Assembly: GCA_036336855.1 (NCBI GenBank)
Contig: JAYZFI010000036.1
Span: 14,871 to 78,870 of the forward strand
Direction of reading: 5' to 3'
DNA from: Candidatus Latescibacterota bacterium
GTDB taxonomy: Bacteria > Latescibacterota > UBA2968 > UBA8231
DNA length: 64,000 nt
In this document: positions 17,482 through 48,550 of the stretch, piece by piece
How the letters are laid out: each line of letters starts with the position of its first letter
How positions within the stretch are numbered: the stretch's first letter is position 1
The notes under the pieces: model-generated
Told to the model about the DNA's origin: nothing
What the model saw: the letters and a program-made list of their open reading frames with translations, nothing else
Database searches by the model: none
Translations under genes and position numbers: made by a program

Positions 17482-17572
17482 GCCGGATGCTTGACTTTGG
17501 CCCGGCCGCCCAGGTTATTACGGAAGAATGGGTTAGCTAGAAGCACTCAGACACAACCCAAGGCACCGTCGG

Positions 17573-17890
17573 ATGAGATCCATCGATCTACAAGACAACC
17601 TGTCCAAGGCTCCCCTCGCCGGACGCGAGCAAGGCATTCAGCAATCACGCCCGGAACACGGCCAGCGGCAGTTGGCGCACGAACTCGAGCAGCAACACGT
17701 GCTCGATCACTCCCGAACCAAGGAGACGGCGGAGCCCGACCCCGCCGCGAACCGCACGGACCAAGACGGGGGCCAGCGCCGCGGCCAAGGGGCGCGACAC
17801 CCCGCTCACCAGGCCGAGGACGAAGAGGGAGAGCAGATGCCGCAAGCCTCACCCTCAGCGACATCCCGCGCCATCGACGTCATCGCTTGA
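17573..17890 (+). CDS. Hypothetical highly charged Gln/Glu/Arg-rich small protein
   Basis: 105 codons. By-eye GC3 > GC1 > GC2 favours this frame over the antisense ORF 17645-17845. No recognisable domain. Confidence 0.3.
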   Translation: MRSIDLQDNLSKAPLAGREQGIQQSRPEHGQRQLAHELEQQHVLDHSRTKETAEPDPAANRTDQDGGQRRGQGARHPAHQAEDEEGEQMPQASPSATSRAIDVIA

Positions 17891-17906
17891 CGTCTCCCCT
17901 GCCCTT

Positions 17907-19576: not shown

Positions 19577-19664
19577 TCCATCTCCCTCTGCTCAGGTGTG
19601 AATGGCCAACTAGCAATAAACCGAGGGAGATTGACGGGGGCAATGCGAGAGACGGGACGACAGG

Positions 19665-19694
19665 TAGACAGAGTCGGCGCTGCGCCCATATACT
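19665..19694 (+). promoter_or_regulatory. Candidate promoter giving a leaderless MFS mRNA
   Basis: TAGACA (19665-19670), an 18-nt spacer, then TATACT (19689-19694). The ATG lies 6 nt after the -10 and there is no SD. Confidence 0.3.
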
Positions 19695-19700
19695 CGCACC

Positions 19701-20981: not shown

Positions 20982-20990
20982 TCACGACAC

Positions 20991-23675
20991 TCAAAACTCG
21001 GTTGCGGAAACCGCCTTTCGGATCATGAGGATGGCGGAGCAGAACATCCCCACCAGTGCCAGTCCCACACCATAGCCCACCGCCAGCACCATGGCGTACC
21101 GCCGCCACTCCTGCTTGCCGTAGCGCTTCCAGAAGTAGCGGCGCGCCAATAGAGCACCGATGAACTCGGTGAACATGGCGAAGAACGTCGCCGCCCCCGA
21201 CTGAGCCACGGCGCCGATGAAGCCCCAGACAAAGAACATGGGCATGCCGAAGAAGCTAAGTACGCTGTAGAGGGCCAGTGCGAAGGTCGTGCCCAGCGCT
21301 AGGATCGGCCACTTCCGGCCCTGTAACGGATGGTGGGTGTCCTCGTCAATCTCACCATCGCCATCGTCGTCGCGCTGGTTGAGGTACTCCTCGTCGGCGA
21401 CACCGTCGAAGTCATCGTCACGGCCGTTGCCGGTGTAGTCAAGATCCTCCCAGTAGATCTTGAAGAACATGGGCCGCTCGTTGGAACCCTGGTAAAAATC
21501 GCCCCGGAAAGTGGAATCGGTATCGAGCTCGAAAACGACTTCGAGGCGGTCCTGCCACTCCCTAGGAACGGAAGCTCGCAGGTAGGGTTCGGGCGAAGTG
21601 ACGATGTCGCCCTCGTCGGGGGTGACCATTTGTGGCAGCGGCAGGTGGTACTGCTCGTCGCGCTCGGGCGACAACTCCATGAACTGAGGCTCACGGCTGT
21701 CGACGCCATCGCCCTCGAAATCGGTGTAGAAATAGCCCCGCTTCGTCCACGGCGAATAGCGGCGCAGGTCGAGATTACGCACGTCGAGTTCTTCCGTGAC
21801 CCGCATGCGCCAGTAGTAGAGCTCATCGTCCTGCAGATTCGCCGGCGACCAAGCGAACTCGCCAGGCTGCAGCTGGCGGCCTTCAACTTCTTCCCCTGCC
21901 TCGTAGAGCAGACTGTATTGGGTCGCCGAGTACCTCACCGCGCTGTTAAAGGCCATCGCTGGCCAGAACGTCTGTACGTACGGGTAGGCATCAGAGGGAA
22001 TCGGGGCCAGGCGCCACAGGAAGCTCCAGTACAGTAGGCTACCGCCGAGCACGATGGGCACCATGACCAGCTCGGCCTTGAGCAGGCTGGTGAAGCGCAT
22101 GCCGGTGAGCTCGATGACCCGGAAAACCTCAGCATTGCCGCCGAAGTCGGAGCCGGCCAGTGGCACGAACCAGATCTCCACGCCGCGGTAGCCGGTGAGG
22201 AAGACGGTGGCCTCATGCAGATGTGGGATCTGGATATTGCGGCCCAACAGACCGTCCAAACGCGCCGACACGAAGGACATGAGCGGCGCGTACACGAAGG
22301 CCATCAACACGATCAACAGCAGGATGCCAGTGGTGATCAGCGTCGGGAATAGCGTCTTGGCGAGCACGATGGGGTACGCAGCGCCGATGAAGAACAGAGT
22401 AATGCAGACCCACAACGGGAAGTCGCCGCGGTTGAGATGGGTCATGCAGTAGCCACGCACCTGCGCCTGATTGTGGCACTCCGGATGACGGCACTCGTCG
22501 CCATCGCGCTGGTGGCCTTCCTGTCCCTGCTGGGCCTCGAAGGCTTGGTCCTGCATGCGCTCGCGGCCTGCGCGCACAACCTGGATAATGCTGATCAGAG
22601 CCAGCGACAAGGTGACCCCCATGGCGAAGGGCGACCAAAAATCGACCCCAGCGGTGATCTGCGTCTGCACAGCGCCCATGCCCGGCACCCAGCGCGGCAT
22701 CATTCCGAAGTGGTGGAGGATCGGCGAGATGGTGATGAAGGAGAGCACCCCGGCAAAGCCACCCATGATGCCCCAGAATGGAGCCAGCAAGCCGACGAAG
22801 ATCGGCGACAACGTGAAGGGAATGGCGATCGGCGTGCCGCCGAGAAAGCGCCCGAGGATCGGCGTCAGGTCAGCGAAGGGGTTGGGCAGAATGACAACCC
22901 TGGTGCCGCTGAAGGTCTCGGTCAACGCCGGCACCGCCACGTAGATGAGACCGAACACGAGGCCGATGGCGCCACCGATGGTGAAGCAGGGCCACTTCCA
23001 GGTCTGCTCCTCGGAACCGCTCTCCTCTGCCAGAGCCATCGCTCCCAGAGCCTGCTGTGGCGCCGTCGGGAAGGGCAGGCGCTCGCGGTCCGACACCAGG
23101 CGAAACAGCACGTACCCGGAAGTGAACCAGGTGATTTTGGAGACGACGATTCCCACCACTAGGAGCGCGATGGGCAACACCCAATCGGGGTGGAAGAACG
23201 TGCGCTCAATGAGGGCGGGAGAGTCCAGAGGCGGTGTGTACCAGCCCCGGCCCATAAATTTCAAATTCGCCAGCTTCTCCGTGAGCCCGAACTGCTGGGC
23301 TTCCTGAGAAGCGACGAAGTACTGGCGGAAAATGAGCTCCTGAAAAGTTTGGCTTTGGGCACGAGCGATGAGCTGCGACGCCGCGTAGGTGAGCAGGAAG
23401 ATCTCCTGGCGCCGCAGGGTGGTAAAGGATCGCTTGGCGATCTCGAGAAAGAGAATCACCGTCACCCATTGGGCGGCGTCGCCAATACCAAGACCAGTGG
23501 TCAGCGACAGGTAGAGCTGGCCTGGGGTCATGATGAAGGCGATGAACAAGACCCCGATGACGGTCTTCTTGGTGAATCCGTGCTCGAATTCGTTCGGCGC
23601 CTGCAGGAGATCGCGGTACTCGTTGATCTCTTCGTACTGGCGGCTGCGCTTGGCCCGTCTGCTCTCTTCCGACAT
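20991..23675 (-). CDS. Polytopic membrane protein, distantly OPT-transporter-like, with inserted zinc-ribbon-like loop and acidic DxDxDG-repeat domain (operon gene 3)
   Basis: 894 aa with many hydrophobic helices. OPT-like segments are FTKKTVIGVLFIAF...LYLSLTTGL and RERLPFPTAPQQALGAM. Two inserts are CRHPECHNQAQVRGYCMTH (aa 395-413) and a soluble insert at about aa 590-785. The start overlaps the gene 2 stop (TGATG). Confidence 0.85.
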   Translation of the reverse strand: MSEESRRAKRSRQYEEINEYRDLLQAPNEFEHGFTKKTVIGVLFIAFIMTPGQLYLSLTTGLGIGDAAQWVTVILFLEIAKRSFTTLRRQEIFLLTYAASQLIARAQSQTFQELIFRQYFVASQEAQQFGLTEKLANLKFMGRGWYTPPLDSPALIERTFFHPDWVLPIALLVVGIVVSKITWFTSGYVLFRLVSDRERLPFPTAPQQALGAMALAEESGSEEQTWKWPCFTIGGAIGLVFGLIYVAVPALTETFSGTRVVILPNPFADLTPILGRFLGGTPIAIPFTLSPIFVGLLAPFWGIMGGFAGVLSFITISPILHHFGMMPRWVPGMGAVQTQITAGVDFWSPFAMGVTLSLALISIIQVVRAGRERMQDQAFEAQQGQEGHQRDGDECRHPECHNQAQVRGYCMTHLNRGDFPLWVCITLFFIGAAYPIVLAKTLFPTLITTGILLLIVLMAFVYAPLMSFVSARLDGLLGRNIQIPHLHEATVFLTGYRGVEIWFVPLAGSDFGGNAEVFRVIELTGMRFTSLLKAELVMVPIVLGGSLLYWSFLWRLAPIPSDAYPYVQTFWPAMAFNSAVRYSATQYSLLYEAGEEVEGRQLQPGEFAWSPANLQDDELYYWRMRVTEELDVRNLDLRRYSPWTKRGYFYTDFEGDGVDSREPQFMELSPERDEQYHLPLPQMVTPDEGDIVTSPEPYLRASVPREWQDRLEVVFELDTDSTFRGDFYQGSNERPMFFKIYWEDLDYTGNGRDDDFDGVADEEYLNQRDDDGDGEIDEDTHHPLQGRKWPILALGTTFALALYSVLSFFGMPMFFVWGFIGAVAQSGAATFFAMFTEFIGALLARRYFWKRYGKQEWRRYAMVLAVGYGVGLALVGMFCSAILMIRKAVSATEF

Positions 23676-26600
23676 CAGCCCGCCGCTTCACCGTCGGCGA
23701 AACCGAGGTCATCGGCCCGCTGCGCCACGTGACGGCAGGTCTCAGTGTGCCTCTGCTGGATGTCGTCCCTCAGTGTCTGCCAGACGAGGAACTGCTTCCG
23801 CAACTCGAGCATGAAACCTAGATTGAGCCGCTTCCAGAATGCCAGCGGACCCGAGATCCTCTCGATGTAGAGATCGATCTCGTGAATGCTTGGATCCTGG
23901 GTAGGCATGGTGGTGAACTGCAAGTACTGGCTCACGCCCATGTCGAAAGGCGCCAGCCACAGCAGCAGCTGCACAGAGTAGACCTTGATCTGGTCAGTCT
24001 CCTCCACCACGATGCGGGTCTTCTCCGTGTACATCTTGCCCACCGACTCATGGCCGTGCGAAGAAAAGAGCGTGTACAGGTATCCGCACAGACTCTCAAT
24101 GGCATTCACGTTCACTGTGAAGGGAAAGGAAAACTGCCAGACGTCGCCGTCGGGATCGGGCAGCTGCCAGCGCCGTACCACGTCGGGTACCGCCATCTGC
24201 GACGCCACCCGGGACGGGTACAGAGTGGAGACGATAACAACGAGCATCACCAGCATGGCCCCGGCGACCGCGGAGGTGGAGGAGTAGTTGAGGCTTACGC
24301 CGCCGAGCATGTTGAGGGCGAGCAGAATCTTCGCGCCCACCTGCCCCACGATGTAGCCAATGACGACGCCGAGCACACCGTATACGCAGGCTTCGGCAAT
24401 GAACAGGAAGGCGATGTGAATTGGCGCCAGGCCCACCGAGGAGTACACACCGATTTCTCGGAAGCGTTCGTACACAGCACCCATCATGGTGTTGAGGACG
24501 ATAAGCGCGGCGATGAGCATGGGGATCACCAGCGCCCCGAAGCCTTCGGCGCTGGTGGAGCCGAACGCGGTGTAGGCGAAGGTGCGCAGCTCACCCTCGT
24601 CGTCGGGCATGCCGACGAACAGCCGGAAGGCGGCACGCGACAGGTAGCTCTGGATAAGCGCCTCAGCATCAGTGTCGTCGTCAAAGCGCACCGCTACCGA
24701 CATGAGTTCTGCACCCATGCTCTCGAGTTCGCGGTAGGGTAGGATTGCCAATCGCGCCGCCGCCTGGTGCTCGTAGCCGATATCCACGTCCGCCTCGAAG
24801 AGCATCATCTCGTTCATCAAGAACATGACGTCCATGCCCGGCATGTTAAACTGCTCGAACTGCTCCTTGGCCGGGGTCATAGGCTGGTTGTTGAGATCGC
24901 GGATCGATTCCAGTACCTGGGAGTCATAAATGCCGCGCACGTCCCACCAACGACCGTGGATCTGCACTTTCGGCGCGGCCTGTTCTCCGCGCTCGGCGGC
25001 CTCAACCTCCTCCGAGGTGATCTGCAAACGCTCGGCCATGGCGTCGGCAAGGATCACCGACCCCTCGAATTCCTTCTCGAACCAGCTACCGGCGACCAAG
25101 GCCTGGTCGATGCCGGTGACTTGGGGCTCGCGCCGGTCCATGCCGAGCAGACCCAGGGCGCCGGCTTCAAGGCCATCATGCCGAAGGGGGATGAAGCCGT
25201 CCTCTTCGAAACCCATGATGTCCCAGGTACGGGGCACAACCACCCCATGGGCGCCGAAGTGGTCGTTGAGGTAGTCGAAGTGGGTCGGCTCCCAGGACCA
25301 CCAGTGGATGTCGTGCATGAGCAACCCGTGGTAGGCGGGCTTCCAGTCTTTGAGAAAGCCAACGAACTGGATCTGCGGTCGGAAGCTGGTAAAGGAGAGC
25401 ACCGTGAAGGTGAGTAGGGTGATGGTCGCCAGGGTCAGACTCGTGCGCATCACCCGCCGGCGCATGTTGGAGATGCCGAGCATGAAGGCGACATAGGCCG
25501 TTCCCGAGCGACTGATTTCGCCACTGGCCGTACCCGAACGTGTCTGGCTCAGCTCGGTCATGAACTCGTTGAAGCGCGACATCACCAGAGAGATGACGAA
25601 GAACGCCATCACTATGACCATGAGAGCTAGCAGCACGATGATCGGCTGGGCGAGCTCGAAGGCGGGGTGCACCTGAGACATGATCAACCAGATCACCGCA
25701 GTGATGGCGCCAAACATCGCCAACTGCCGCCGGACGTCGGTGGAGGCAAAGATGAGCCGCTCGGCAAAGAACGCCGCCGGCACCAGCAGGGCCATGAAGA
25801 ACACGAGACCGTTCATGACGTCGTTCTGGGTTCCGCGCACATCCGGATAGGCGCCGAACTCTAGGCCGATGGCTTCGCGTGCGTGGCGGATGTAGTCGCC
25901 CCAATTGAGGTCGGTTATGGCCTGATCTGCTTTCTCGATGGAGCGGGCGGCGCGGTCGTGTAGGGCTTCCAAGCGGGGATTCTCGATGGCGAACTCGCGC
26001 ATCCGTTCGATGCGCGCTTCGTCGAGGCGCCACATGTCCTTGGTGCTTTGCAGCATGGAATGACGCACCATGCGATTGCCCGCGAAGCCGAAACCCCGGC
26101 CCTGTCCCGTCGTCTCGTCGGTAGTGCCTTCGTTGCCCAGTAGGATCATCGACTCCGAGACCACTCGCAAAGAATCTTCGAGCCCGGCGAACAACAGCAT
26201 CATCTGCTCGTCGACGTCCCCCATGGCGAAGCCATACTGACGAGGCGTGGCACCGCGGCGATCGAGGACCTTCATCTCCTTCGAGAAGTTGCCCATGGCA
26301 AAGTGGAAGTGGGCGTGGACGCGATCGTAGATCTCGATACTCTCCGCCGGGAACATAATCGTCGTCCACGCCGTTTCCGCTTTGCCCAAGGTCTGCTCCC
26401 AAGCACCGATTGCCTGGGCCCGCTCGCCGTGGTCGGTGGCGTGAGTGATCTCCCCGGTCTCGAGATCCATCTTGTAGCTATGTAGCTGCGTTGGCCGCTT
26501 GCTCAGTCCACGCGACTTGTAGTTTCCATATTCATCGGCTATTTCTAGCCTCGGTCGCCACATGTTCGACCGGTGTCCCAGTTTGCGGATCCACACCAGG

Positions 26601-28315
26601 GCATTGTCGACCGGATCCTTGGGCTCGGCGCTACGCCTGGGCAACAGACGCAAGCGACCGTCGATAGCGACGAAGACGTCGAGGATGTTCTTGTTGTGAT
26701 CCTTCCGCAGTTGCGCTGGGTCGGAACCGAACAGATCCGGATCGTCCAGCGCCTGTTGCAGCGCCGAATTGATGATCTCGCTCTGTAGCGCCAGGTTGCC
26801 GAAGTCCACCTTGTCGGCAGTGTCGAGGGGCGTGTCCAACACCATTCGCTTGTCAGTGGTGGTGACTAGGTTCAGCGCCATCAACCCCGCGTCTACGGCA
26901 ATCTTGCCGGGCTCACGGTAGACATCGTCGTCGAGATAGCTGTCCCAAGACAGGCCCTTGATCGGGCTGATCAAGTTCACCAGCGCCGTGGACTCGCGCT
27001 TGAGCTCGGCGGCGGCTACCTCGGCGTATTGCATGAAGCGGCGTCCAAGGGGCACAAAAAATTGGCGATGCGCCGGAAGACGGGCGCTATGTACGACCCC
27101 GACCTGGTTGCTCTTCGACGACAGCTCAAGACCGATGAAGAGGGCAATGTCAAGAGAGTCTGGCTCGATACGGATTCCGATGTCGACGGAATCGGGTTTG
27201 ATACGTCGCAACTTGAGCGCCGCCCTCAGCTTGGGCATGTTCACGGAGTCGAGTCTCAGTTGACCATTTTGCTCATTTTCGACGAGCTCGATGCCTAGCG
27301 TGTCGGGGGTGATACCGCGGGCGGCGGTGGCGGCGATCAGCGTCTCCACGTCGAGGGAGTCGGCGATAAAGCGCTTGGGCATGCGGTCTTTGAAGGGCGC
27401 CACCTTACGGGCGTGCTTGTCGAACCACTCGAACAGGCCACGGTAGCCCTGGAAGTTCGAGCCCGCCGCCAGCAGGGCGACAGTCCGCCCCGGAGGCTGC
27501 GCCTGTAGGTGACGGGCGAGTTCCAAGAGCACGGAGATGCTGGAGGCGGCTTCTGCTGACGGTGACACCGAGGGCACGACGGAGGTTCCGTCGTAGTATG
27601 CCTCGACGAGGACAACCTCGTCCTTCAATACCGGATCGGTGCCGGGCACAATCCCCCAGATGTTCCAACTCGTCGCCTTCTCGAAGTCCATCCGCGCGTG
27701 CATGCGCACTGGCAACGATCCCCTGCCGATACGCGCCTTCAGGGTCAGCCCGGTGTTGCGATCGAGCCAGAATCGGGGCACGCGCACCGGCGCCCACGAC
27801 CACTTATGACGTGCCTCCCACAGCGTGGTCTCCTCAGGGGCGATGAAGATGATAGCCGCTGCTCCCAGTGCGGCCGCGTTCTTCCAATTCGCCCAGGAGT
27901 TGAACTCCATGAGCACGACATTGCCCTCAACCTCGAAGCCGTTGAAGTCCTCGTACTCCCCTGTGCTCCCGTAGAACAGCTCGGCTTCGAGGCCTTCAGG
28001 ACCGAGAGTGTTGGTACGCACCAGATTGGGCCACATGGAAGTGATGGGAACGTCCTCCACCGCCTCCCCCGCCACGGATAGCAGCTGCAACGAAGCGCCC
28101 TTGTCGATGGGCATGACCAGCTCGTAGGGCTCGCGTTTCACTTTGGTGACACCAGCGGCGATGAACTCACGCTCCACGTAGCTAGCGGCGAAGCGATCCC
28201 CGGGGTAGCCGGGGTGTCGGGCACCGTGAGAGGAGAGCTCGCGAATCGTGTGCGTGAGGCGGGCCACCGTCTCGTCGCGCTCGGCGTGCAGCCCAGCCGC
28301 GGCCATGAGCAACAC
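23675..28315 (-). CDS. Giant fusion: PA-domain/M28-peptidase-like ectodomain (metal ligands apparently degenerate) + duplicated FtsX-type permease + unknown C-terminal domain (operon gene 2)
   Basis: 1546 aa. PA-like block: FNGFEVEGNVVLMEF...AAALGAAAIIFI. M28-like blocks: NIWGIVPG...VVLVEAYYDG, SAEAASSISVLLELARHL. FtsX module: RRVMRTSLTLATITLL then a roughly 280-aa loop then ALVIPMLIAALIVLNTMMGAVYERFREIGVYSSVGL. An earlier degenerate FtsX-like helix triplet lies at aa 835-912. The start may be TTG at 28321 (LGVLLMAAAGLHA is signal-like). Confidence 0.9.
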   Translation of the reverse strand: MLLMAAAGLHAERDETVARLTHTIRELSSHGARHPGYPGDRFAASYVEREFIAAGVTKVKREPYELVMPIDKGASLQLLSVAGEAVEDVPITSMWPNLVRTNTLGPEGLEAELFYGSTGEYEDFNGFEVEGNVVLMEFNSWANWKNAAALGAAAIIFIAPEETTLWEARHKWSWAPVRVPRFWLDRNTGLTLKARIGRGSLPVRMHARMDFEKATSWNIWGIVPGTDPVLKDEVVLVEAYYDGTSVVPSVSPSAEAASSISVLLELARHLQAQPPGRTVALLAAGSNFQGYRGLFEWFDKHARKVAPFKDRMPKRFIADSLDVETLIAATAARGITPDTLGIELVENEQNGQLRLDSVNMPKLRAALKLRRIKPDSVDIGIRIEPDSLDIALFIGLELSSKSNQVGVVHSARLPAHRQFFVPLGRRFMQYAEVAAAELKRESTALVNLISPIKGLSWDSYLDDDVYREPGKIAVDAGLMALNLVTTTDKRMVLDTPLDTADKVDFGNLALQSEIINSALQQALDDPDLFGSDPAQLRKDHNKNILDVFVAIDGRLRLLPRRSAEPKDPVDNALVWIRKLGHRSNMWRPRLEIADEYGNYKSRGLSKRPTQLHSYKMDLETGEITHATDHGERAQAIGAWEQTLGKAETAWTTIMFPAESIEIYDRVHAHFHFAMGNFSKEMKVLDRRGATPRQYGFAMGDVDEQMMLLFAGLEDSLRVVSESMILLGNEGTTDETTGQGRGFGFAGNRMVRHSMLQSTKDMWRLDEARIERMREFAIENPRLEALHDRAARSIEKADQAITDLNWGDYIRHAREAIGLEFGAYPDVRGTQNDVMNGLVFFMALLVPAAFFAERLIFASTDVRRQLAMFGAITAVIWLIMSQVHPAFELAQPIIVLLALMVIVMAFFVISLVMSRFNEFMTELSQTRSGTASGEISRSGTAYVAFMLGISNMRRRVMRTSLTLATITLLTFTVLSFTSFRPQIQFVGFLKDWKPAYHGLLMHDIHWWSWEPTHFDYLNDHFGAHGVVVPRTWDIMGFEEDGFIPLRHDGLEAGALGLLGMDRREPQVTGIDQALVAGSWFEKEFEGSVILADAMAERLQITSEEVEAAERGEQAAPKVQIHGRWWDVRGIYDSQVLESIRDLNNQPMTPAKEQFEQFNMPGMDVMFLMNEMMLFEADVDIGYEHQAAARLAILPYRELESMGAELMSVAVRFDDDTDAEALIQSYLSRAAFRLFVGMPDDEGELRTFAYTAFGSTSAEGFGALVIPMLIAALIVLNTMMGAVYERFREIGVYSSVGLAPIHIAFLFIAEACVYGVLGVVIGYIVGQVGAKILLALNMLGGVSLNYSSTSAVAGAMLVMLVVIVSTLYPSRVASQMAVPDVVRRWQLPDPDGDVWQFSFPFTVNVNAIESLCGYLYTLFSSHGHESVGKMYTEKTRIVVEETDQIKVYSVQLLLWLAPFDMGVSQYLQFTTMPTQDPSIHEIDLYIERISGPLAFWKRLNLGFMLELRKQFLVWQTLRDDIQQRHTETCRHVAQRADDLGFADGEAAG

Positions 28316-28352
28316 CCCAAGCGCTGCCGAGATGTGAAAGGGGACTTTCAGG

Positions 28353-30524
28353 TCAGATCCAGAAGATAGAGTTGCTCACCGTGCCGGTGAGATAGTCGAC
28401 CACCAGCCAGCCGCCGCTGATGAACATGCGTCCAGCGATCATGCCGAGGAAGAAATTCCGGCTCTTGGCGAACGTGATGGCGCCGCCGTACTTGAGGACG
28501 AACACCTTGACCAGCCAGGCGAAGAACACACTGAACCACATCCAATCCACCACCCAGCTGGTCATGATGGGAAAGCCAATAGGGTGCAGGGGCCACCATA
28601 GAAATCGTTGATGTAGCCAAGTCAGCGCCAGCATGCCCACGGCGCCAACGCCCATGAAGCCCATCCCCGGCCAGTACACCCCTGGGGTTTCCATGCCCTT
28701 GATCGCCGTGCGGCAAATAACGGCGGGCATGCTCTTGTAGAACCAGCCGCTGAAATTAATGCCGCCGTCGCGGTAGGCGAGCTCGAGAACGGTGTAGAGC
28801 GACCCTGTGACACCGAGGAAGATGGCGATGAGGATCGACCAGAATACGATACGCCGGCTGTGCGTGTTCATGCCTTCGATGAGCTTCAGGCCGTTGGCCA
28901 CTAGCCCCATCAGAAAGACCCGGATATCAGCGGCGAAGATGTAGCCCAGAGAGATGTTGGTGATCGCCGTGGCTCCCAGCAGCTTGGAGCCGAGGCCGAA
29001 GACCATGAAGTCGCAGGCGTTCATCGGCGTGATGATCGCCGCCACTCCCGACTCGGCGACCACACGAGAAAGCCCCGTGAAGATGATCATGAGCACGGCG
29101 ATGAAGAGCACGCTCGCCCACAGCGGCGTACCCAGCCAGGTGAACCAACCGATCATCACTGCAGTGCCCACCAGCGTGCCGAGCACGGCGGCGCGGTATG
29201 ACATGATCTCGTCGTCGTCGCTGAGCTCGGTGTCCTTGCCCAGAAAATTCAGCGCCACTTGCTTCAGGTGCTCTCGGCCCACCCACAGCCCGATGGCGAC
29301 GAACACAATGAGGGCGCCAAGCCCCTGGTAGTTGATGAGCTCCGTCACCCGCACCGACCACACGTCCTGCTGCTTGGTCACGCCGTTGGCGACGAACATC
29401 ATGCGCTCGAACTTCGACACCAGGGCGAAGCCCCAGATGCCCATGGCAATGTCGGGCCCGAGGAGGTAGGAGAACCCGACCACGGCGAAGCTGATCGTCA
29501 TGTTGATGGACTGACCGAAGCCGATGGGGAAGCTCCAGGCCGTGGGAATAAGCGGCCAGCCACCGAGGTACTTGTTGAGGCCAGTGAACAGGCCCACGAG
29601 AATGGGCAGCGCCGCCCCAGCCCACATGGCCTTGCTCTTGAAGAACGGATTCACCATCGACTGCTCGTCTTCGCCGCGGATGATAACCTGCGCCGCTTGC
29701 ACCAGCGGGTAGGACAGTCGCTCCCGATCCATCCACTGGCGCCGCAGAATCACCATGATGCTGACCATGGTCACGTACAGCGACAGGAGCATCACCGCCC
29801 ACAGCAGCATGGGACGCAACCACAGCATCCACGGGATCGAGTAATTCACGCCGGCGCCGTAGCCTTCGAAGAACTTGGCGTTCTCCATGCCGTCGTTAGC
29901 CATGATCTCCATCGGCAGGTGGGGAAACAGAAGCTCTTCCCACTTGTTCTCCGGACTCGCGTAGTAGAAAGCGCCGGAGATCGCCGGCAGGATGGTCTCG
30001 CACAGCCCCATCGTCGACACCGAGGCGACGACGATGAGCATGATGTAAACGACGATGAGTTCGGAGCGGTTGAGGGCGAGGCTGCGCCGACCCGCGGCGA
30101 CGAGGACGGTGTTGGCGAACAGAGACAGAACTAGGAAGCTGGAGAACAACGCCCCCGGCGAGTACGCCACCAGCCCCTTGTCGAAAGGGTAGTAGTGTAC
30201 GGCCCAGGCGAGGGCGACAAGCACTGTGAGCGCCCCAGAGATCGCCACGGTGCGCCCGGTGATTTTGTAGAGAGTGTTGAGGCCGCCAACAAGGACGAGA
30301 AAGAGGAAGATCGCCCCAGGGGTGGTGAAATCCAGGGTCATGTACGACCCCTTGAGCACTGCATCGGCGTAGTTGGATCCCACTGCTAGGAAGAACGAGA
30401 GGAACGAGCCTACCGCCAGTGCACGCTTGGTGAGGGGCTGGTGGCCGGCCTCCTCCTCCTGCGTGACCGAGGCGCCTCGCAGAGACAGGTAACGCCGGAA
30501 ATCGATGGGGATTCCGACTCTCAT
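28353..30524 (-). CDS. Polytopic membrane protein, distantly OPT-transporter-like (operon gene 1)
   Basis: 723 aa with more than 14 hydrophobic helices. The N-terminal LTKRALAVGSFLSFFLAVGSNYADAVLKG and the RERLSYPLVQAAQVI loop parallel gene 3 and the OPT family. I recall similar proteins annotated as DUF6785/DUF6784 but cannot verify this. Confidence 0.85.
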   Translation of the reverse strand: MRVGIPIDFRRYLSLRGASVTQEEEAGHQPLTKRALAVGSFLSFFLAVGSNYADAVLKGSYMTLDFTTPGAIFLFLVLVGGLNTLYKITGRTVAISGALTVLVALAWAVHYYPFDKGLVAYSPGALFSSFLVLSLFANTVLVAAGRRSLALNRSELIVVYIMLIVVASVSTMGLCETILPAISGAFYYASPENKWEELLFPHLPMEIMANDGMENAKFFEGYGAGVNYSIPWMLWLRPMLLWAVMLLSLYVTMVSIMVILRRQWMDRERLSYPLVQAAQVIIRGEDEQSMVNPFFKSKAMWAGAALPILVGLFTGLNKYLGGWPLIPTAWSFPIGFGQSINMTISFAVVGFSYLLGPDIAMGIWGFALVSKFERMMFVANGVTKQQDVWSVRVTELINYQGLGALIVFVAIGLWVGREHLKQVALNFLGKDTELSDDDEIMSYRAAVLGTLVGTAVMIGWFTWLGTPLWASVLFIAVLMIIFTGLSRVVAESGVAAIITPMNACDFMVFGLGSKLLGATAITNISLGYIFAADIRVFLMGLVANGLKLIEGMNTHSRRIVFWSILIAIFLGVTGSLYTVLELAYRDGGINFSGWFYKSMPAVICRTAIKGMETPGVYWPGMGFMGVGAVGMLALTWLHQRFLWWPLHPIGFPIMTSWVVDWMWFSVFFAWLVKVFVLKYGGAITFAKSRNFFLGMIAGRMFISGGWLVVDYLTGTVSNSIFWI

Positions 30525-30724: not shown

Positions 30725-31912
30725 CTACTCCCCCGAATGGGCAAACTCAGTGGCGATGAGGGCGTAGAGCTCCGCGACTCGCACGAGTTCGGCAACAGGG
30801 ACACGCTCGCTGATGGTGTGAGCCCCCCGGGAAGCAGGACCGTGCGTGACGCTGGGCACGCCGGCGGCACAAAACCGATTGCCGTCGTCTAGGAAGGGCT
30901 TGGCCCCCACCGGCAGTTCACACCCCCCAGACTGCTGGCGGTAGCAGCGCTGAAAAGCAGTGACCAGGGGCTCGTCATCGCCGAGCTCGAAGGCATCACC
31001 CATTTGAGAGAACTCGACGTCGACCTCAACACCGTGATTCTCCGCCACGGACCATGCCATGCTTTCGATCTCCACGCGGGCCCGAACGCCGCTACCGGGC
31101 GCAACCCAGCGGCGAGTGCCCTTCACCTGTCCATTCACTGGACTCTGGTTGTAGATCTCGCCTACCTGCACGAGCCCGACGAAGGCGGAGTCGGTGCCTG
31201 TCACCGGGTGAGCCTTCACACTGAGCTCGACGTTCCACTCCTTCATCTTCACGGCGAACTCCGCCGCCGCCCCGACCACATCGCCCGTTCCTTCCGGCCG
31301 TAGCACTTCGTGGGTGGGTTCACCAGATCGGCGGAAGTTGGCCTCGAAGATCGCCATACCGCGGCCGGCCATGGGCATCAGGTCGCTGAGGTACTCGGGA
31401 ATGAGCACGCCGTCGCCGGTGTAGCCGTCGCGAATCAGCGCCTCGACCTGACGACCGTCACCCCACGGGCCCTCGTGGTGATCGTGGGCGGTGAGCAGGA
31501 CGGTGCCGACCTGCAGCAGCTCACACTCGCGCAGCACCCGCACCGCCTCCACGCAGCAGGCGATGCCCCCCTTCATGTCAGCTGCGCCGAGACCGGTGAG
31601 CATGCCATCGCTCACCTCCGCCTCGTAAAACGGCAGGGGCACGGTGTCGAGATGACCGTTGAACTGCAGGCAGGGGCCTGGCGTTGCGCTGTCGTAACGC
31701 AGCGCCACCGCGGGTGACTCCGCCCAATCAGCGACGGGCCTCTTCACCGAGAACCCCTCCGAAATCAACATCTCGGCCAACCCATCGGCGACCTCGGCGG
31801 CGCTGCGTGTGGGGCTATAAATGCGCACCAGCTTCAACGCCGTCTCAAGCAACCGCTGCTGATTCACGGCAGAGGCGATGCGTGCCTGGGTGTCTCGCAG
31901 ATTCTCGGTCAT
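30725..31912 (-). CDS. M20-family metallopeptidase (ArgE/DapE/ACY1/CPG2-like)
   Basis: NGHLDTVP and GLGAADMKGG motifs are present. I chose the ATG at 31912 (MTENLRD), directly after the upstream gene stop at 31914. The longer ORF reaching 32221 overlaps that gene. Confidence 0.85.
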   Translation of the reverse strand: MTENLRDTQARIASAVNQQRLLETALKLVRIYSPTRSAAEVADGLAEMLISEGFSVKRPVADWAESPAVALRYDSATPGPCLQFNGHLDTVPLPFYEAEVSDGMLTGLGAADMKGGIACCVEAVRVLRECELLQVGTVLLTAHDHHEGPWGDGRQVEALIRDGYTGDGVLIPEYLSDLMPMAGRGMAIFEANFRRSGEPTHEVLRPEGTGDVVGAAAEFAVKMKEWNVELSVKAHPVTGTDSAFVGLVQVGEIYNQSPVNGQVKGTRRWVAPGSGVRARVEIESMAWSVAENHGVEVDVEFSQMGDAFELGDDEPLVTAFQRCYRQQSGGCELPVGAKPFLDDGNRFCAAGVPSVTHGPASRGAHTISERVPVAELVRVAELYALIATEFAHSGE

Positions 31913-31913
31913 G

Positions 31914-33017
31914 TCAATCGAGCTCGAAGTCAGGCAACCCGGCGGGAACTGCCGCCGGCTGCATGCAGGTGCTCTGCAGCTGGTGATGGACGCCAGCGTC
32001 GGCAGCGTCATGGAAGGCGTGCATGAGATCGAGGACGTGGAAGGTGAGATCGCCGTTGGCTCGGTGCTCCCGCCCCAGGCGTAGGGCGTATGCCATGTCG
32101 GCGACACCGATGCTACGGCTCTGCGCAGCGTTGCCGTGGGACAAATCAGTGACTTCCACCCAGTCATCCCCCTTGCTCTTGATGTACACGGGGCCGCCGA
32201 AAGTGTTGGGGTCGGGCACACTCAACGAACCCTCGGTGCCGTAGATCTCAATGCGCGGCAGAGTCATGCCTCCCCACACGTCGAAGCTCGTCGTAATTGT
32301 GCCAATGGCGCCGTTGGCGAACTCCATAATACCGGCGATGTGAGTGGGCACGTCGACGCGGATGATGGTGCCCCGTTTGGGCTCGCTGACAATCTCGCGC
32401 TCAGGATAGGTAATGCGGGTGCTGCCCGTGATACGCCGCACCGGACCCATCAAGTTCACCAGCGCCGTCAGGTAGTACGGCCCCATGTCGAACATGGGCC
32501 CGCCCCCCTTCTTGTAGTAGAACTCGGGATCTGGGTGCCAACTCTCGTGGCCGTGACCCATCATGAAGGCCGTCGCTGCCACCGGCTCGCCGATGCGTCC
32601 GTCGTCGATGAGCTTGCGGCAGGTCTGGATGCCAGCGCCGAGGAAGGTGTCGGGGGCACCGCCGACACGCAGTCCCTTGTCTTGCGCGAGCTCCACCAAT
32701 GCCGCCCCTTCACTGCGCTCCACCGCCATGGGCTTCTCGCTGTAGGCACATTTGTCGGCCTCCAGGGAAGCGCGGGCAATTTCGTAGTGCGCCGCCGGGA
32801 TCGTCAGATTGATGACGATCTCGATCTCGTCGTCGGAGAGCAGCTCGTCCACCGTACAGTCGCGGGGCACGTCGTACTCCTCGGCCCGCGCCCGGGCACG
32901 CTCTGGGAGCATATCAGCGACAGCGACAACATCAAGGATCTCCCAGTTGGCGGAGACGGAGAGGTAGGCGCCACTGATGGCACCGCAGCCGACGATTCCG
33001 ACCTTCACGCTCTGCAT
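31914..33017 (-). CDS. Gfo/Idh/MocA-family NAD(P)-dependent oxidoreductase
   Basis: The N-terminal Rossmann motif [15 protein letters not shown] and the family-typical EKP block (YSEKPMA). Confidence 0.9.
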
Positions 33018-43926: not shown

Positions 43927-45367
43927 CGTAGGTGCGGGCGATCTTCGGATCTGTGTTGGCCAGGGCGATGAGGTTCCTCAAGGCCGCATGGAGCCGCACC
44001 GCTCCCTCAGGATGCTGGGCGAGCAGGTTGATCTCCTGATCGGGGTCCGCGTCGAGATCGAAGAGCTCGTCCACCCGACGCTCCGGCATGCCCGTGTTGG
44101 GATAGGTCTCCTGGCGTACGGGCTTCCGACCCTTGTAGGCGAGGTCCTTGTTGGGCCAGTACTGAAGAGACCAACGACCATCGGTGACCATCGCCGGAAC
44201 GGTACCCCAGTTGTCATCAAGATTGCGCCCACTGATGGCGACTTCGCGGTGGGCAACGTCTGGATTGCCGATTACCGGCGCGAAAGATCTGCCATTCAGG
44301 TCGGTGGACGCCGGCAGACCGGCGAGCTCGCACAAAGTCGGAAACAGGTCAATAGGCTGCACTAGCGCCTGCGAGCGAGCACCCACCGGTCCATCGGGTT
44401 TCCGCAGCATCAATACCTGCCGCACCATGGGCTCGTAGAGCTGACCAAGATCCCCCCACGGCTTGCCTTGTAGCCCGTGGTCGCCAAAGTAGTGCCCGTG
44501 ATCGGACATAAGAACGACAATGGTGTTGTCGTACAGACCGAGTAGCTCCACCGTGTCGAGGAAATACCCGACCCAGCGATCGGTCATAGTCACTTCGGCT
44601 GCGTACAACGCCCGCGTGTGGTTGAGTTCCGCCTCGCTCATGAAATCGAGAGAGAATCCGTAACATGGGTATTGAATCTCATCTCCCGTCCATCCTCGAT
44701 CGTAGAGATCAACGTAGTACTGGGGCGGATCCCAGGGCTCGTGGGGGTCCCAGCTGTCGATCCACAGAAAGAAGTCAGACTGGTAGTTCTTCTCCAGCCA
44801 ATGCATGGCCTCGCGGAACACCCGGGGTCCGAGGTAATCGCACTCGTAACGTCTGCGACTTTGGTTCAGCAAATAGCGGTGCAGGCCCGACTTCACCTTG
44901 TGTTCCGCCGCCGGCAGCTTGATGTCGAGGCTGGCATCGGCGATCCACGGCTCGCCGCCCTGTCCGCGAATCCACTCGATGGAACCGAAGCCACGATCCA
45001 GGAAATTGCCTTGGGTCATGAAAATTGGGGTGTCGAAGATGAGGCCCGTGGAGTGACCCGCTCGTCGGAAAGTCTCCGCCAGAGTCGGCAGGTCGCGCTC
45101 CATCTCGTCCCAAGTGTTAAAGGGATGTCCCCAGCGGCCCGTGAACAGGTCACGCCGACAGGGCAGTGTGGGAAAGGAGCCGGCATAGGCGCGATCGAAC
45201 ACCAGACTGTGGTGTGCGAAGCGGTCCATTGCCGGAGTGCGCGCCCGTCCTCCAGGACCCGCACCCCCGGGCCAGTCGTCGGCCCCCTTGCCGCCGGTGT
45301 GGGCTTTTCCGTAGACGCCCACGTGGTCGGTGCGCAGGGAGTCGAGCATGATGCAGATGACGTTCAA
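43910..45367 (-). CDS. Sulfatase-fold (alkaline-phosphatase superfamily) enzyme with Thr at the nucleophile position
   Basis: [28 protein letters not shown] (aligning to CxPxR...LTG) and [12 protein letters not shown]. The TTG start at 45367 forms a TTGA overlap with the upstream ATPase stop and is preceded by AAGGGGAAGGA. Confidence 0.8.
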
Positions 45368-46389
45368 CGCTGTTGTCCTTCCCCTTGCGTCGCCCCCCGA
45401 AGTTGTTCGGAGTGATGGCATCTCACCCAGTGACGGGGTAACAACTCGCGCAGCACGGGCAACTCTTCGCGACAACGGCCCTCGTCGGTGTGTACGCAGC
45501 GCGGATGGAAGGCGCAACCCAAGGGAGGTTCAGCGGGGTCGGCGATCTCTCCCTGCAACGAGGATTCCCAGCTGCGTCGATCCGGGTCCGGTTCGGGCAC
45601 GGCGGCAAGCAGGGCCCGCGTGTATGGGTGTTGGGGATTCTGAAATAGCTCTTCGGTCTCCGCGAGCTCGACGATGCGTCCGACGTACATCACTGCCACA
45701 CGGTCGCACAGGTGCCTCACGACGCTGAGATCGTGGGCGATGAAGATGTAGGTTAGCCCGAGGTCGGCCTGCAGCTGCTGTAGAAGATTGAGGATCTGCG
45801 CCTGCACCGACACGTCGAGAGCGGATACCGGCTCGTCTGCGACGATGAGCCGGGGTCGCAGGGCCAGACCGCGGGCAATGCCGATGCGCTGGCGCTGACC
45901 GCCGCTGAAGGCGTGGGGGTAGCGCAGCATGTGCGCCGGGTTGAGCCCTACCTGGGCCAGCAGCACCCGCACCCGCGCCTCGCGTTGCTGCCGATCCTTG
46001 AGGCCATGCACGAGCAGAGGCTCGCCCACGATGTCGGAGATCGTCATGCGCGGGTTCAGGGATCCATAGGGATCCTGGAAAATGAGCTGTATGTGCCGCC
46101 GCAGCGACCGCAACTCGTCGCCAGCGACTGTCGCCATGTCAACGGGGTCGCCATTCGCGGCGAACAGGATCTGCCCAGAAGTGGGGTTCAGGGCGCGCAG
46201 AATGCAGCGTCCCACCGTGGTCTTTCCGGAGCCACTCTCCCCCACCAAGCCGAGACACTCACCTTCATGCACGTCGAAGCTGACGCCGTCCACAGCACGC
46301 ACCGTTCCCACTTGGCGGTTGAGTACGCCTCGTGTAATGGGGAAATGCTTGGTCAGGTCGCACACCTGCAGTAGCGGGTGTGGGTTCAC
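45364..46389 (-). CDS. Opp/Dpp-type ABC transporter ATP-binding protein (OppF-like)
   Basis: Walker [10 protein letters not shown], signature SGGQRQR, Walker B LIVADEP and a C-terminal oligopeptide-ATPase extension. The GTG start at 46389 forms a GTGA overlap. Confidence 0.9.
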
Positions 46390-47420
46390 GCTCCCCCTCT
46401 TTCCCGGTGACGTTTCAAGCAAGCCGTTCTGTGGCCATCTCCAACGGGATCGATGAGCAACGGCCGCTCGCCGACGTCGCAGAGTCCGGATTCCGCCTCC
46501 TGGCAGCGAGGATGGAAAGGGCATCCAGACAAGCGCTCGAAGGGATCGGGGACGCTGCCTTCGATGACCTCCAACTCCCCCTTGCGGTTCTCGATCTGCG
46601 TGCCTGGCAGCGAACGTTGCAGCGCGGCCGTGTAGGGATGTCGTGGCTCAGCGTAAATCGAACGCACCGGGCCGGCCTCGACGATCCGTCCCATGTACAT
46701 CACCGCCACCTCGTCCGCCATCTGTGCTACTACGCCGAGGTCGTGGGTAATGAGCAGGATCGCCATGTCGAACTCTTGCTGTACTTGTCGCATCAGCAAC
46801 AAAATCTGCGCCTGAATGGTCACATCGAGAGCGGTGGTGGGCTCGTCGGCGATGAGTAAAGCGGGTTGGCAGGACAACGCAATGGCAATCACAATCCGCT
46901 GCCGCAAGCCGCCACTGAGCTCGTGGGGATACTGGTAGAACCGGGTCTCGGGCGTTGGGATTCCCACCAGTCGCATGATGCTAAGAGCGCGCTCCCGCGC
47001 TTCGGCCTTGTCGACATCGGAGTGCAATTGCACCGCCTCCACGATCTGGCTGCCCACGGTGTGCACCGGGCTCAGGCTGCTCATGGGCTCCTGGAAAACC
47101 ATGGCGATGTCGCGCCCTCGGATCTCTCGCATCTGCCGACCGTCCTCGTCGAGATCGGTGAGGCGCACGTCGCCATCCTTGCCGTGCAGGACGATTTCGC
47201 CGTCCACGATACGACCCGGGTTGGAAATCATACGCATGATGGAGAACGCGGTGATGGTCTTCCCGCAGCCGCTCTCTCCTACTACGCACATCGTCTTCCC
47301 CCTAGGGATCGTCAGATCGACACCGTCCACCGCCTGCACCACACCCTCGTCGAGAAAAAAGTGGGTCTTCAGCCCTGAAACGGTAACGATGGGAAGAGGT
47401 GCGGACGTCATCCGGGTCAT
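46386..47420 (-). CDS. Opp/Dpp-type ABC transporter ATP-binding protein (OppD-like)
   Basis: Walker A GESGCGKT, signature SGGLRQR and Walker [13 protein letters not shown]. The ATG at 47420 forms an ATGA overlap. Confidence 0.9.
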
Positions 47421-48550
47421 CGCGAGTAGGGATCGGCGGCGTCGCGCAATCCGTCGCCGACGAAGTTGAAAGCGAGCACAGCGATGATGACGAAGCACGC
47501 CGGCGTCAGCAGCCACGGTTGCATGGCTACAGCCTGCACGTTCTGCGCCTCTTTCAGCAGCACCCCCCAGCTGGTAATCGGTGGCCTGAGTCCCAGTCCC
47601 AGAAAACTCAGCGCCGTCTCGCCGAGAATCATGTTCGGCAGAGTCAACGTCAGGCTGACGATGATGTGACTGGTAAAGGCGGGCAACAGGTGCCGAAGCA
47701 TGACCCGCCGCTGACTAGCGCCGACAAGCAACGCCGCAGTAGCATAGTCTTCTTCGCGCAGCGACAGGATCTTGCCGCGCACCACCCGCGCCAGACCAGT
47801 CCAGCCGAGAAGGGAGAGCACCACGGTGATGCCGAAGTAGACCTGTAGGGGTGACCAAGTCACCGGCAGCGCCGCCGATAACGCCATCCACAAGGGAATC
47901 GAGGGAAAGGACCGCAACACCTCGATTAGGCGCTGAATCAAGTTGTCGATCCAGCCGCCGTAGTAGCCGGAAGCGGCGCCGATGGTAAGCCCGAAGATGA
48001 AGCTCAGCGCCACGCCGATGAGGCCCACGGTCAGCGAAATCCGCGATCCATAAATGATGCGGGAGAGCAGATCGCGCCCTAGGGCATCCGTGCCCAGCAG
48101 GAAGAGTGTGCCCCCCTCTTCCACACCAAACAGATGCAGGTCGGTCTCGAAGATTCCCCCGAGCTTATAGGTCAAACCGCTCGCCAACAGCTGTAGAGGG
48201 TATTCACGGTTGGAGTCCTCGGCGTAGACCATGCGCAACGTTTCCGGGTGGCGGCGCCCCTCCAGCCCGTACACGACGGGCCACAGATGCAATCCTCCGT
48301 CAGCGCCGATCCAGTGTAGACGCTGCGGCGGCGCGTACTGGTAGGACAGGTTCTGCTCGTCGAGGCCGTATGGCGCAACGAATTCGCAGAGCAAGGCCAC
48401 GGCGTACAGACAGAGTATGACCCGCCCCGCCCACACTGCCAACCGATGGCGGGCAAACTTGGCGCGCATGAGTTGCCACTGCGACGCCATGTAGTGAGCG
48501 TCTACCGCGGTGCGCACTTCCGCTGCCTCGTGCCGGGCCAGCACCGTCAC
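47417..48550 (-). CDS. Opp/Dpp-type ABC transporter permease (OppC-like)
   Basis: Hydrophobic BPD-type permease with an EAA-like block (YATAALLVGASQRRVMLRHLLP). The GTG at 48550 forms a GTGA overlap with the oppB-like stop. Confidence 0.85.
   Translation of the reverse strand: MTVLARHEAAEVRTAVDAHYMASQWQLMRAKFARHRLAVWAGRVILCLYAVALLCEFVAPYGLDEQNLSYQYAPPQRLHWIGADGGLHLWPVVYGLEGRRHPETLRMVYAEDSNREYPLQLLASGLTYKLGGIFETDLHLFGVEEGGTLFLLGTDALGRDLLSRIIYGSRISLTVGLIGVALSFIFGLTIGAASGYYGGWIDNLIQRLIEVLRSFPSIPLWMALSAALPVTWSPLQVYFGITVVLSLLGWTGLARVVRGKILSLREEDYATAALLVGASQRRVMLRHLLPAFTSHIIVSLTLTLPNMILGETALSFLGLGLRPPITSWGVLLKEAQNVQAVAMQPWLLTPACFVIIAVLAFNFVGDGLRDAADPYSR

Follow-up and report, generated by a model that had tools for sequence, protein, structure and literature searches.

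Does an FtsX-type permease that is encoded far from any suitable ATPase work without one? The question is raised by a giant gene in a stretch of 64,000 nucleotides from Candidatus Latescibacterota bacterium (assembly GCA_036336855.1, contig JAYZFI010000036.1, positions 14,871 to 78,870; the whole stretch is called the window below). The gene occupies 23675..28315 on the minus strand, as do all parts of it described here, and encodes 1546 residues when read from a GTG codon (about 1558 from a CTG at 28351). From its N-terminus, the protein is made of a signal peptide, a PA/M28-like ectodomain, three transmembrane (TM) helices, an FtsX/MacB module and a novel C-terminal domain. A previous interpretation made from the letters of this DNA, the sequence-only reading, saw here an internally duplicated FtsX protein and, by implication, a self-contained orphan with its C-terminal domain in the docking site of the nucleotide-binding domain (NBD). 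Our analysis points elsewhere. With a probability of about 0.55, we regard the giant protein as the large membrane subunit of an undescribed branch of Type VII systems of the ATP-binding cassette (ABC) kind, the MacB/LolCDE/FtsEX-like 'mechanotransmission' systems. Its pseudo-peptidase would bind a peptide-like ligand, OPT-like and DUF6785 membrane proteins would cooperate in uptake, and an unlinked LolD-type ATPase would supply the power.

The giant protein contains an FtsX/MacB module

The open reading frame (ORF) given in the sequence-only reading is present and intact. Among 5.8 billion proteins, a word-indexed search found 84 homologues with 26-72% identity, nearly all of 1450-1730 residues, and a scan of one genome per GTDB species returned 590 relatives. 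Because it is conserved in these two sets, the giant ORF is not a chance reading frame. The G+C content is 60-64% throughout the window, and the gene shows no compositional break. The best 79 of the 590 loci belong almost all to Latescibacterota or to metagenome-assembled genomes labelled 'Gemmatimonadetes', often with 2-3 paralogues per genome.

An AlphaFold2 (AF2) model of residues 821-1546, calculated from a 50-sequence alignment, reached a mean pLDDT of 84.7. It contains an amphipathic helix (residues 936-953), TM1 (955-975), an alpha/beta periplasmic domain (980-1254), TM2 (1257-1283), a coupling helix (1285-1293), TM3 (1298-1333) and TM4 (1346-1374). The amphipathic helix (AYVAFMLGISNMRRR), which is cytoplasmic, and TM1 are encoded at 25391..25510 (residues 936-975); the motif AF.LG.SNMRRR..RT of this region is near-invariant in the family. 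The MacB-like periplasmic core domain, between TM1 and TM2, is encoded at 24554..25378. TM2, the coupling helix (YERFREIGVYSSVGLAP) and TM3-TM4 follow at 24194..24547 (residues 1257-1374). The Pfam FtsX model PF02687 matched residues 1262-1374 with an E-value of 7.6e-12 (45.8 bits for a cut-off of 25.5), and this was the only FtsX match in the protein. With the isolated TM2-4 segment, the value improved to 4.8e-14 (52.9 bits). In the PDB, the sequence of the FtsX segment matched YtrF, MacB and LolC. Foldseek searches with the model of residues 821-1546 retrieved MacB (5gko, E = 5.8e-15) and LolCDE (1.5e-12), as well as an S. pneumoniae MacB-like transporter, LolC/LolE, HrtB, YtrF and YbbP. The periplasmic domain matched the isolated MacB periplasmic region (5c59_A) with an E-value of 7e-6 and a TMt of 0.52. 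Taken alone, residues 980-1254 of the window protein gave no Pfam match; PF12704 is recorded for the homologues P0048, P0049, P0061, P0063 and P0074. In the coupling helix YERFREIGVYSSVGLAP, key positions are 80-100% conserved among 50 members, and conservation of the ER.REIG...GL.P.H region is 90-100%. Having a PF02687 module, a MacB-like TM1-TM2 domain and an ER.REIG coupling helix, the giant protein is by structure an FtsX/MacB-type permease. Pfam, AF2 and Foldseek thereby bear out the canonical module, made of TM1, a MacB-like loop and a helix bundle, that had been recognized from the sequence.

The ectodomain has the fold of an M28 aminopeptidase

The AF2 model of residues 1-830 has a pLDDT of 93.5 and a pTM of 0.91. 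It shows an ectodomain of PA + M28 aminopeptidase fold (residues 12 to about 545; 26681..28282), followed at 25850..26680 by a beta-rich module (residues about 546-730) and then a helical stalk (753-829), which leads into the first of the three extra TM helices. No specific fold assignment was obtained for the beta-rich module. With Foldseek, the ectodomain matched the Aneurinibacillus aminopeptidase (2ek8, 2.7e-22), B. subtilis BSAP/YwaD (6hc6, 1e-20) and P. aeruginosa PaAP. The transferrin receptor (TfR1), which is non-catalytic, and the active glutamate carboxypeptidase GCPII were also retrieved. A family profile compared with the PDB matched YwaD at 3.6e-20, and TfR1 and nicalin as well. 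Pfam M28 and PA matches in the giant protein fall under the gathering scores (17.9 bits for PF04389, cut-off 21.3). Overall, AF2, Foldseek and profile comparison agree on an M28 fold with a PA insert.

The residues of an active M28 site, that is the metal ligands and the catalytic Glu (H-x-D, D, E-E, D/E, H), are not retained. In the window protein and in 50 aligned members, the motif aHyDs is replaced by AYYDG (HxD to YYD) and the bridging Asp by Glu (SAE). Among the 50 aligned members, the catalytic/ligand EE pair becomes (H/N)F, with SNF in the window protein, and yHTPeD becomes vDTPlD (His to Asp), with LDTPLD in the window protein. Because the metal and catalytic motifs are replaced across the aligned family, the ectodomain is, as judged from its motifs, a pseudo-peptidase or at least has a non-canonical site. 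By analogy with the transferrin receptor and nicalin, this pseudo-peptidase most likely serves in binding or as a receptor, and is no canonical enzyme.

The first 820 residues were placed outside the cytoplasmic membrane on the basis of the basic SNMRRR linker, the charges of the loops and the orientation of FtsX TM1, whose N-terminus is on the inner side. Hydropathy and the AF2 models agree with the extracytoplasmic ectodomain of about 800 residues of the sequence-only reading.

The three extra helices are not a second FtsX half

Between the stalk and the FtsX module, hydropathy and AF2 place three helices, TMa-c, at residues 823-855, 861-882 and 891-927 (25535..25849), which return the chain to the cytoplasm ahead of the module. 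Aligned as families with hhalign, the TMa-c and TM2-4 regions gave a probability of 0.2-0.4% (E = 0.09-0.28). Pfam FtsX found nothing in residues 815-935 even at E<=10, as compared to 4.8e-14 for the control TM2-4 segment. The NCBIfam ADOP model TIGR03434 scored 14.8 bits for a cut-off of 622. As PF02687 matches only once, the giant protein does not have the two FtsX modules of an ADOP or duplicated permease. TMa-c as a degenerate FtsX half was therefore ruled out by hhalign and Pfam. Of the second helix triplet announced at residues 835-912, the three helices stand and the echo of FtsX does not. The duplicated topology fails with it, since profile comparison finds no FtsX similarity; as far as these profiles can tell, the resemblance is a topological analogy only.

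The C-terminal domain is new and is not an NBD

Residues 1375-1546 (23678..24193) form, according to AF2 and to motif and profile searches, a novel conserved cytoplasmic alpha+beta domain. Its core of ~140 residues (1392-1533) has the order beta-alpha-beta4-alpha-alpha in the AF2 model. The domain is as conserved as the FtsX core. It carries the motifs WLAPFDMGVSQ (WLAPFDxGVSQ in the family) and LRKQFLVW (LRKQFLxW), and its invariant positions include P, W, G and D. A profile of 20 sequences of the domain had no PDB sequence match at E<=10 and nothing meaningful in Pfam, in agreement with the earlier description of about 175 C-terminal residues without a recognized motif. The same profile, run against 1.84 billion cluster representatives, matched 1596 proteins, which are representatives at the 50% identity level (1423 of them at E<=1e-10). 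Of the 150 matches listed, only three have the domain elsewhere than at the C-terminus; the carriers are giants of 1450-3050 residues, or shorter proteins that are probably fragments. In the whole-model search, Foldseek matches to START/Bet v1/PYL (helix-grip) proteins were weak (E about 1e-2).

An NBD was defined by Walker A, Walker B and the LSGGQ signature in a RecA-like alpha/beta fold of about 220 residues. Neither Walker A nor LSGGQ occurs anywhere in the giant protein. With no motifs, no profile matches, and the wrong size and fold, a divergent NBD is ruled out. The sequence-only reading had itself named this as a result that would count against it; the domain was not detected as an NBD. 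It is a new domain.

Relatives of the giant gene encode a dedicated ATPase

In a phmmer search of the 64 kb with ABC ATPase queries, the only ABC ATPase ORFs were 45364..46524 and 46386..47516. Both are of the OppD/F type, as the sequence-only reading had said, and adjoin OppC-like and SBP_bac_5 genes. They are part of a complete Opp-type ABC importer at 45364-51695, in which the ORFs called for the D and F ATPases share about 140 nucleotides. No FtsE/LolD/MacB-type ATPase was found within the window or fused in the giant protein, and the ~15 closest loci (62-75% identical) had no ABC ATPase within 10 kb.

The picture is different in other relatives. In L037, L059, L060, L067 and L069, all from Latescibacterota, a solitary ATPase of 262 residues heads the DUF6785-giant-OPT operon. 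The gene upstream of it is on the opposite strand and no other permease is nearby. The giants of these five loci are about 40-45% identical to the window protein. In L053, the same ATPase is nearby, separated by a transposase. More distant clusters (L086, L088, L089 and the P0069 locus) contain the giant, an OPT-like gene, an unknown protein of ~300 residues, a PqqD-like protein, a small FtsX protein of 205-446 residues and an ATPase. In L006, the giant comes with an OPT-like gene, a small FtsX and two ATPases; the PqqD-like and 300-residue genes were not detected. The best NCBIfam matches of the dedicated ATPases are LolD, FtsE, MacB, YbbA and DevA. These ATPases are 57-81% identical to one another, in lineages whose giants are 31-40% identical to the window protein; with the ATPase of L021, which belongs to an unrelated MacB-type pair, they share 38-45% identity.

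All giants with an ATPase in the cluster or upstream keep the C-terminal domain motifs. Because ATPase-bearing relatives keep this domain, it is not a replacement for the ATPase. The implied claim that the protein works without an ATPase, its C-terminal domain occupying the NBD site, is thus contradicted by relatives that have the domain and encode an ATPase in the cluster. As to an adjacent ATPase gene in closely related genomes, which the sequence-only reading had also named as a result against itself, it was found in five Latescibacterota loci and in none of the ~15 closest ones. We infer that the giant family ancestrally works with a dedicated LolD-type ATPase. In the clade of the window, the ATPase gene would lie elsewhere in the genome, with paralogues perhaps sharing it, or would have been lost. 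Of these two options, the first is favoured by the near-invariant coupling helix. Overall, the giant protein is probably not a truly ATPase-less orphan.

In six further Latescibacterota loci (L072, L075, L081, L083, L084 and L085), the 300-residue and PqqD-like genes directly follow the OPT-like gene, at about 14.5-16.2 kb of the respective locus, and neither a small FtsX nor an ATPase was found within 10 kb. This subclade looks like an intermediate stage of cluster erosion.

Several candidate partners were rejected. In the 551-residue 'ATPase' ORFs of L021 and L039, the N-terminal 330 residues are a spurious high-GC frame. The true ATPase (~225 residues) belongs to a separate canonical MacB_PCD + FtsX pair, which lies beyond TPR and FG-GAP genes on the opposite strand. 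Those ORFs that stand before the ATPase in L037 and L053, considered as small permeases, are non-coding frames, and the MalK-type ATPases of L003 and L034 belong to a sugar importer.

The giant gene is coupled to an OPT-like gene and preceded by a DUF6785 gene

Downstream of the giant gene, at 20991..23675 on the minus strand, lies a gene for a polytopic membrane protein of 894 residues related to the OPT superfamily. Its ATG overlaps the stop codon of the giant gene by 1 nucleotide; the two genes are translationally coupled. The 894-residue protein is 36% identical (E = 1e-125) to the corresponding partner in L005, which itself passes the PF03169 OPT model (37.2 bits for a cut-off of 25.8, E = 1.9e-9). 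The window protein had no Pfam match at E<=0.1, and four other partners also lack an OPT match. On the other side, at 28353..30524 (minus strand), a polytopic membrane protein of 723 residues carries DUF6785 and DUF6784 (Pfam 3.4e-102 and 3.1e-26). Its gene stops 2 nucleotides before the CTG of the giant gene. The DUF6785 and OPT-like families share a DRERL(P/S)(F/Y)P motif, and hhalign aligned them with a probability of 50% (E = 1.7e-4). The DUF6785 protein is thus possibly a remote OPT relative; at this probability the alignment is suggestive only, and DUF6785 was not retained as a clear OPT homologue.

In 61 of 85 relative loci, an OPT-like ORF was detected immediately after the giant gene, and a DUF6785 gene adjoins the giant in most. 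The pair of giant and OPT-like gene is conserved in hundreds of genomes. The orders DUF-giant-OPT, giant-OPT-DUF, giant-DUF and DUF-giant were all seen, and one homologue (P0052) is annotated as a giant fused to DUF6785/6784. Because the gene order varies, the association of the three genes appears to be selected and not just inherited synteny. Multiplied arrangements also occur: L004 has tandem giants of 1510 and 1509 residues before a single OPT-like gene (5333-14530), and L061 has two consecutive DUF6785-giant pairs (1-12184).

The 894-residue protein shows two peculiarities. At residues 395-413, in a loop before a conserved RGDF, it has a conserved zinc-knuckle-like motif, C-x-H-x2-C-x9-RGYC-x2-H (CRHPECHNQAQVRGYCMTH). 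The knuckle is present in all partners of 880-1075 residues and absent from the subclades of 650-830 residues; the partners without it include those whose operon has the ATPase. Residues 586-790 form an acidic insert of about 205 residues (25% D+E), extracytoplasmic-looking, in which the runs DDDFDG and DDDGDGEIDED resemble calcium-binding loops. Among relatives, the length of this insert goes from 14 to about 396 residues.

A gene for an M20 peptidase (30725..32221; Pfam 1.1e-20) is located 200 nucleotides upstream of the DUF6785 gene on the same strand. M20 homologues are found near the giant in L001, L009, L011 and L015, and recur in the subclade of the window; the peptidase is a possible functional associate of the giant system. 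As called from a GTG start, the M20 ORF overlaps a GFO/IDH/MocA oxidoreductase ORF (31914-33017, minus strand) by about 300 nucleotides. Its Pfam match starts only at residue 187 of 498 and its homologues have about 400-430 residues, so that the true start is probably further downstream than in the ORF list.

The wider neighbourhood is degradative. It comprises sulfatases (8782-10245, 37980-39389 and 43910-45517), the M20 peptidase together with M19 (36553-37608) and S15 (39699-41387) peptidases, and amidohydrolase, creatininase-fold, beta-lactamase-fold and MR_MLE-family enzymes. In L059, from the ATPase-bearing subclade, the operon is followed at 14769-21694 by bacterial microcompartment shell genes and by DHDPS-family, PhyH, zinc-ADH and DAP-epimerase-like genes. 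These shell and enzyme genes suggest that in L059 the transported compound feeds a compartmentalised catabolic pathway. A literature search on DUF6785/DUF6784, M28-FtsX fusions, ADOP or orphan FtsX, within the library that could be searched, returned nothing relevant.

The start codon and the signal peptide

Read from the listed GTG (28315), the giant protein begins with VLLMAAAGLHA, followed by ERDE; these 11 residues are no more than the last part of a signal peptide. Upstream, the frame stays open as far as a TGA at 28378-28376, reading ...SD-L-KVPFHISAALGVLLMAAAGLHA, and between this TGA and the GTG it contains no ATG, GTG or TTG. A CTG at 28351-28349, 2 nucleotides past the stop of the upstream gene, would yield a textbook signal peptide. 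The probable Sec signal peptide (M)KVPFHISAALGVLLMAAAGLHA, read from the sequence at 28283..28351 on the minus strand, thus needs the CTG or an ATC at 28333 as start. Gene callers choose the GTG or an ATG at 28306, and the signal peptide is truncated. Nearly all homologues have a clear signal peptide or an N-terminal hydrophobic helix. The 'signal-like N-terminus' of the sequence-only reading therefore holds in the frame opened by CTG or ATC, where the peptide is complete; the listed GTG start keeps only its tail. Since the CTG start gives a full signal peptide and the homologues have signal peptides, we regard the ectodomain as exported, with a start codon that would be non-canonical.

A model for the giant system and its alternatives

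In the mechanism that we favour, the near-invariant coupling helix would dock a dimer of a LolD/FtsE-type ATPase, encoded in the cluster in relatives and here outside the 64 kb. ATP-driven movements of the FtsX helices would be relayed to the periplasmic domain and to the pseudo-peptidase ectodomain. The latter could capture a peptide-like ligand and pass or gate it to the OPT-like partner(s), through which it would be taken up. Once inside, the ligand would meet cytoplasmic peptidases that act on it, for instance the neighbouring M20, and the C-terminal domain may be an accessory regulatory or ligand-binding module. We infer a physical complex, uptake as the direction of transport, a peptide as substrate and an ATPase that acts in trans. 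The peptide theme is suggested by the M20, M19 and S15 peptidases, the amidohydrolase and the Opp genes of the window, and by the PqqD-like, peptide-binding proteins of related clusters.

Several points weigh against this mechanism. No LolD-type ATPase is encoded in the 64 kb or within 10 kb of the giant in the ~15 closest loci, and the ATPase could truly be lost in the clade of the window. In the distant clusters, the ATPase adjoins the small FtsX and could serve this protein alone. The 'peptide' substrate is deduced only from domain ancestry and gene neighbourhood. The residues that replace the M28 site (Y-Y-D, E, H-F, D) are themselves conserved, and a non-canonical catalytic or metal site is conceivable. 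Finally, the assignment of the 894-residue protein to OPT is transitive, via the L005 partner.

A bolder proposal, which we hold less likely than not, is that of a hybrid uptake machine. A Type VII mechanotransmitter with a pseudo-peptidase receptor would be physically coupled to OPT-superfamily secondary transporters. Extramembrane movements, either driven by ATP or controlled by the C-terminal domain, would load or gate a proton-driven carrier. The clade of the window may in this case run without an ATPase, with the C-terminal domain as control element.

It is doubtful that in the clade of the window the system is altogether independent of an ATPase. The FtsX module would then be a passive scaffold in a receptor or anchor whose PA/M28-like ectodomain binds substrate for proton-driven OPT-like transporters, and the C-terminal domain would regulate or assemble it instead of any nucleotide-driven motion. 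Transporters of the OPT family are secondary carriers and require no ATPase, and no ATPase is found within 10 kb in window-type loci or in most Latescibacterota loci. The C-terminal domain is conserved as strongly as the FtsX core, and orphan FtsX proteins are a recognised category (NCBIfam TIGR03434, 'ADOP family duplicated permease'). However, the coupling-helix motif, which contacts the NBDs in MacB, LolCDE and FtsEX, has stayed near-invariant, and the clusters of relatives carrying this C-terminal domain contain a gene for a dedicated LolD-type ATPase that is highly conserved. Moreover, several genomes have multiple paralogous giants and an ATPase beside only one of them, which fits an ATPase shared in trans.

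A role in envelope remodelling like that of FtsEX is unlikely. The module would control or deliver a hydrolase-like domain acting on cell-wall peptides or envelope proteins, and the OPT-like partners would recycle the released peptides. Its counterparts would be FtsEX-EnvC/PcsB/RipC or YbbAP-TesA, the effector being here fused in cis. Three published reports describe characterised Type VII systems that are coupled to hydrolases of the periplasm or to activators of these (YbbAP-TesA, PMC12646458; FtsEX-RipC, PMC10694151; FtsEX-EnvC, PMC7668044). The MR_MLE-family, beta-lactamase-fold, creatininase and M20 neighbours, and the DAP-epimerase-like and DHDPS-family genes of L059, would be compatible with such a role. 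Against it, the M28 catalytic residues are replaced, and several paralogues per genome in catabolic neighbourhoods favour nutrient acquisition over a housekeeping envelope function.

The internally duplicated orphan is very improbable, largely refuted at the level of sequence. In its favour, there is a formal analogy of topology, with a hydrophobic N-terminus, then a large ectodomain and three helices that run out-in, in-out and out-in, and duplicated FtsX proteins such as YbbP, BceB and ADOP do exist, YbbP being among the Foldseek matches. Against it, in addition to the failed TMa-c and ADOP comparisons, the N-terminal hydrophobic segment resembles a cleavable signal peptide (AxA-like LHA before E) and not a TM1, and there are relatives that have both the C-terminal domain and an ATPase encoded in the cluster.

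Comparison with known systems

Three features not seen together before meet in the giant system: a fused PA/M28 pseudo-peptidase, an unassigned cytoplasmic domain and a translationally coupled OPT-like partnership. The nature of the ectodomain and the pairing with OPT and DUF6785/6784 proteins go beyond the sequence-only reading. Besides Latescibacterota, where genomes have several paralogues, the family is found in further uncultured phyla. Should the partnership be physical, it would join secondary transport to primary-active mechanotransmission and would suggest a function for DUF6785 and DUF6784. For annotation, the case advises caution, as 'orphan' FtsX permeases may rely on an unlinked, shared ATPase.

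Like MacB, LolC-LolE, FtsX, HrtB and YtrF (PF02687 + PF12704), the giant protein has a four-helix module in which an amphipathic helix comes first, an alpha/beta domain on the periplasmic side lies between TM1 and TM2, and a coupling helix with ER.REIG joins TM2 to TM3, and like MacB/Lol systems its relatives encode LolD/FtsE-type ATPases in the cluster. Unlike MacB/Lol proteins, it has an 800-residue PA/M28-like ectodomain and three extra TM helices ahead of the module, and a novel cytoplasmic domain of ~170 residues after TM4. The operon studied here contains no ATPase gene and no partner of the MacA/TolC or LolA type; in most loci the giant is instead paired with OPT-like and DUF6785/6784 membrane proteins. 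ADOP (TIGR03434) and YbbP/BceB are likewise large FtsX proteins with more than four TM helices, and an ADOP gene often has no ATPase gene next to it. In contrast to these proteins, the giant has a single detectable FtsX module and extra helices that are not FtsX-like; unlike in ADOP, its ectodomain is a peptidase fold and not a second MacB_PCD.

With BSAP/YwaD (6hc6), the Aneurinibacillus aminopeptidase (2ek8) and PaAP, the giant protein shares the PA insert and the M28 alpha/beta core, and like TfR1 and nicalin it has not kept the catalytic metal site. It differs from PA-domain M28 proteins in that the domain is fused to a polytopic permease, instead of being secreted or single-pass, and in its specific conserved substitutions at ligand positions (Y-Y-D, E, H/N-F, D). 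A large insertion at residues about 303-390, the extra beta-rich domain and the helical stalk further set it apart.

As for OPT (PF03169), the L005 partner passes the threshold and DUF6785 shares the DRERLxxP region, whereas the 894-residue protein of the window differs by its acidic insert of ~205 residues, its Cys/His knuckle and its absence of a Pfam match. The characterised Type VII systems MacAB-TolC, LolCDE, FtsEX, YbbAP, BceAB and HrtBA work in the envelope and move no substrate across the cytoplasmic membrane. We know of no OPT protein that works with an FtsX-type protein, and a literature search for such a case found none. Overall, the giant family makes up a large branch of the Type VII ABC permeases that has no annotation so far, and its conserved pairing with the OPT superfamily is unprecedented.

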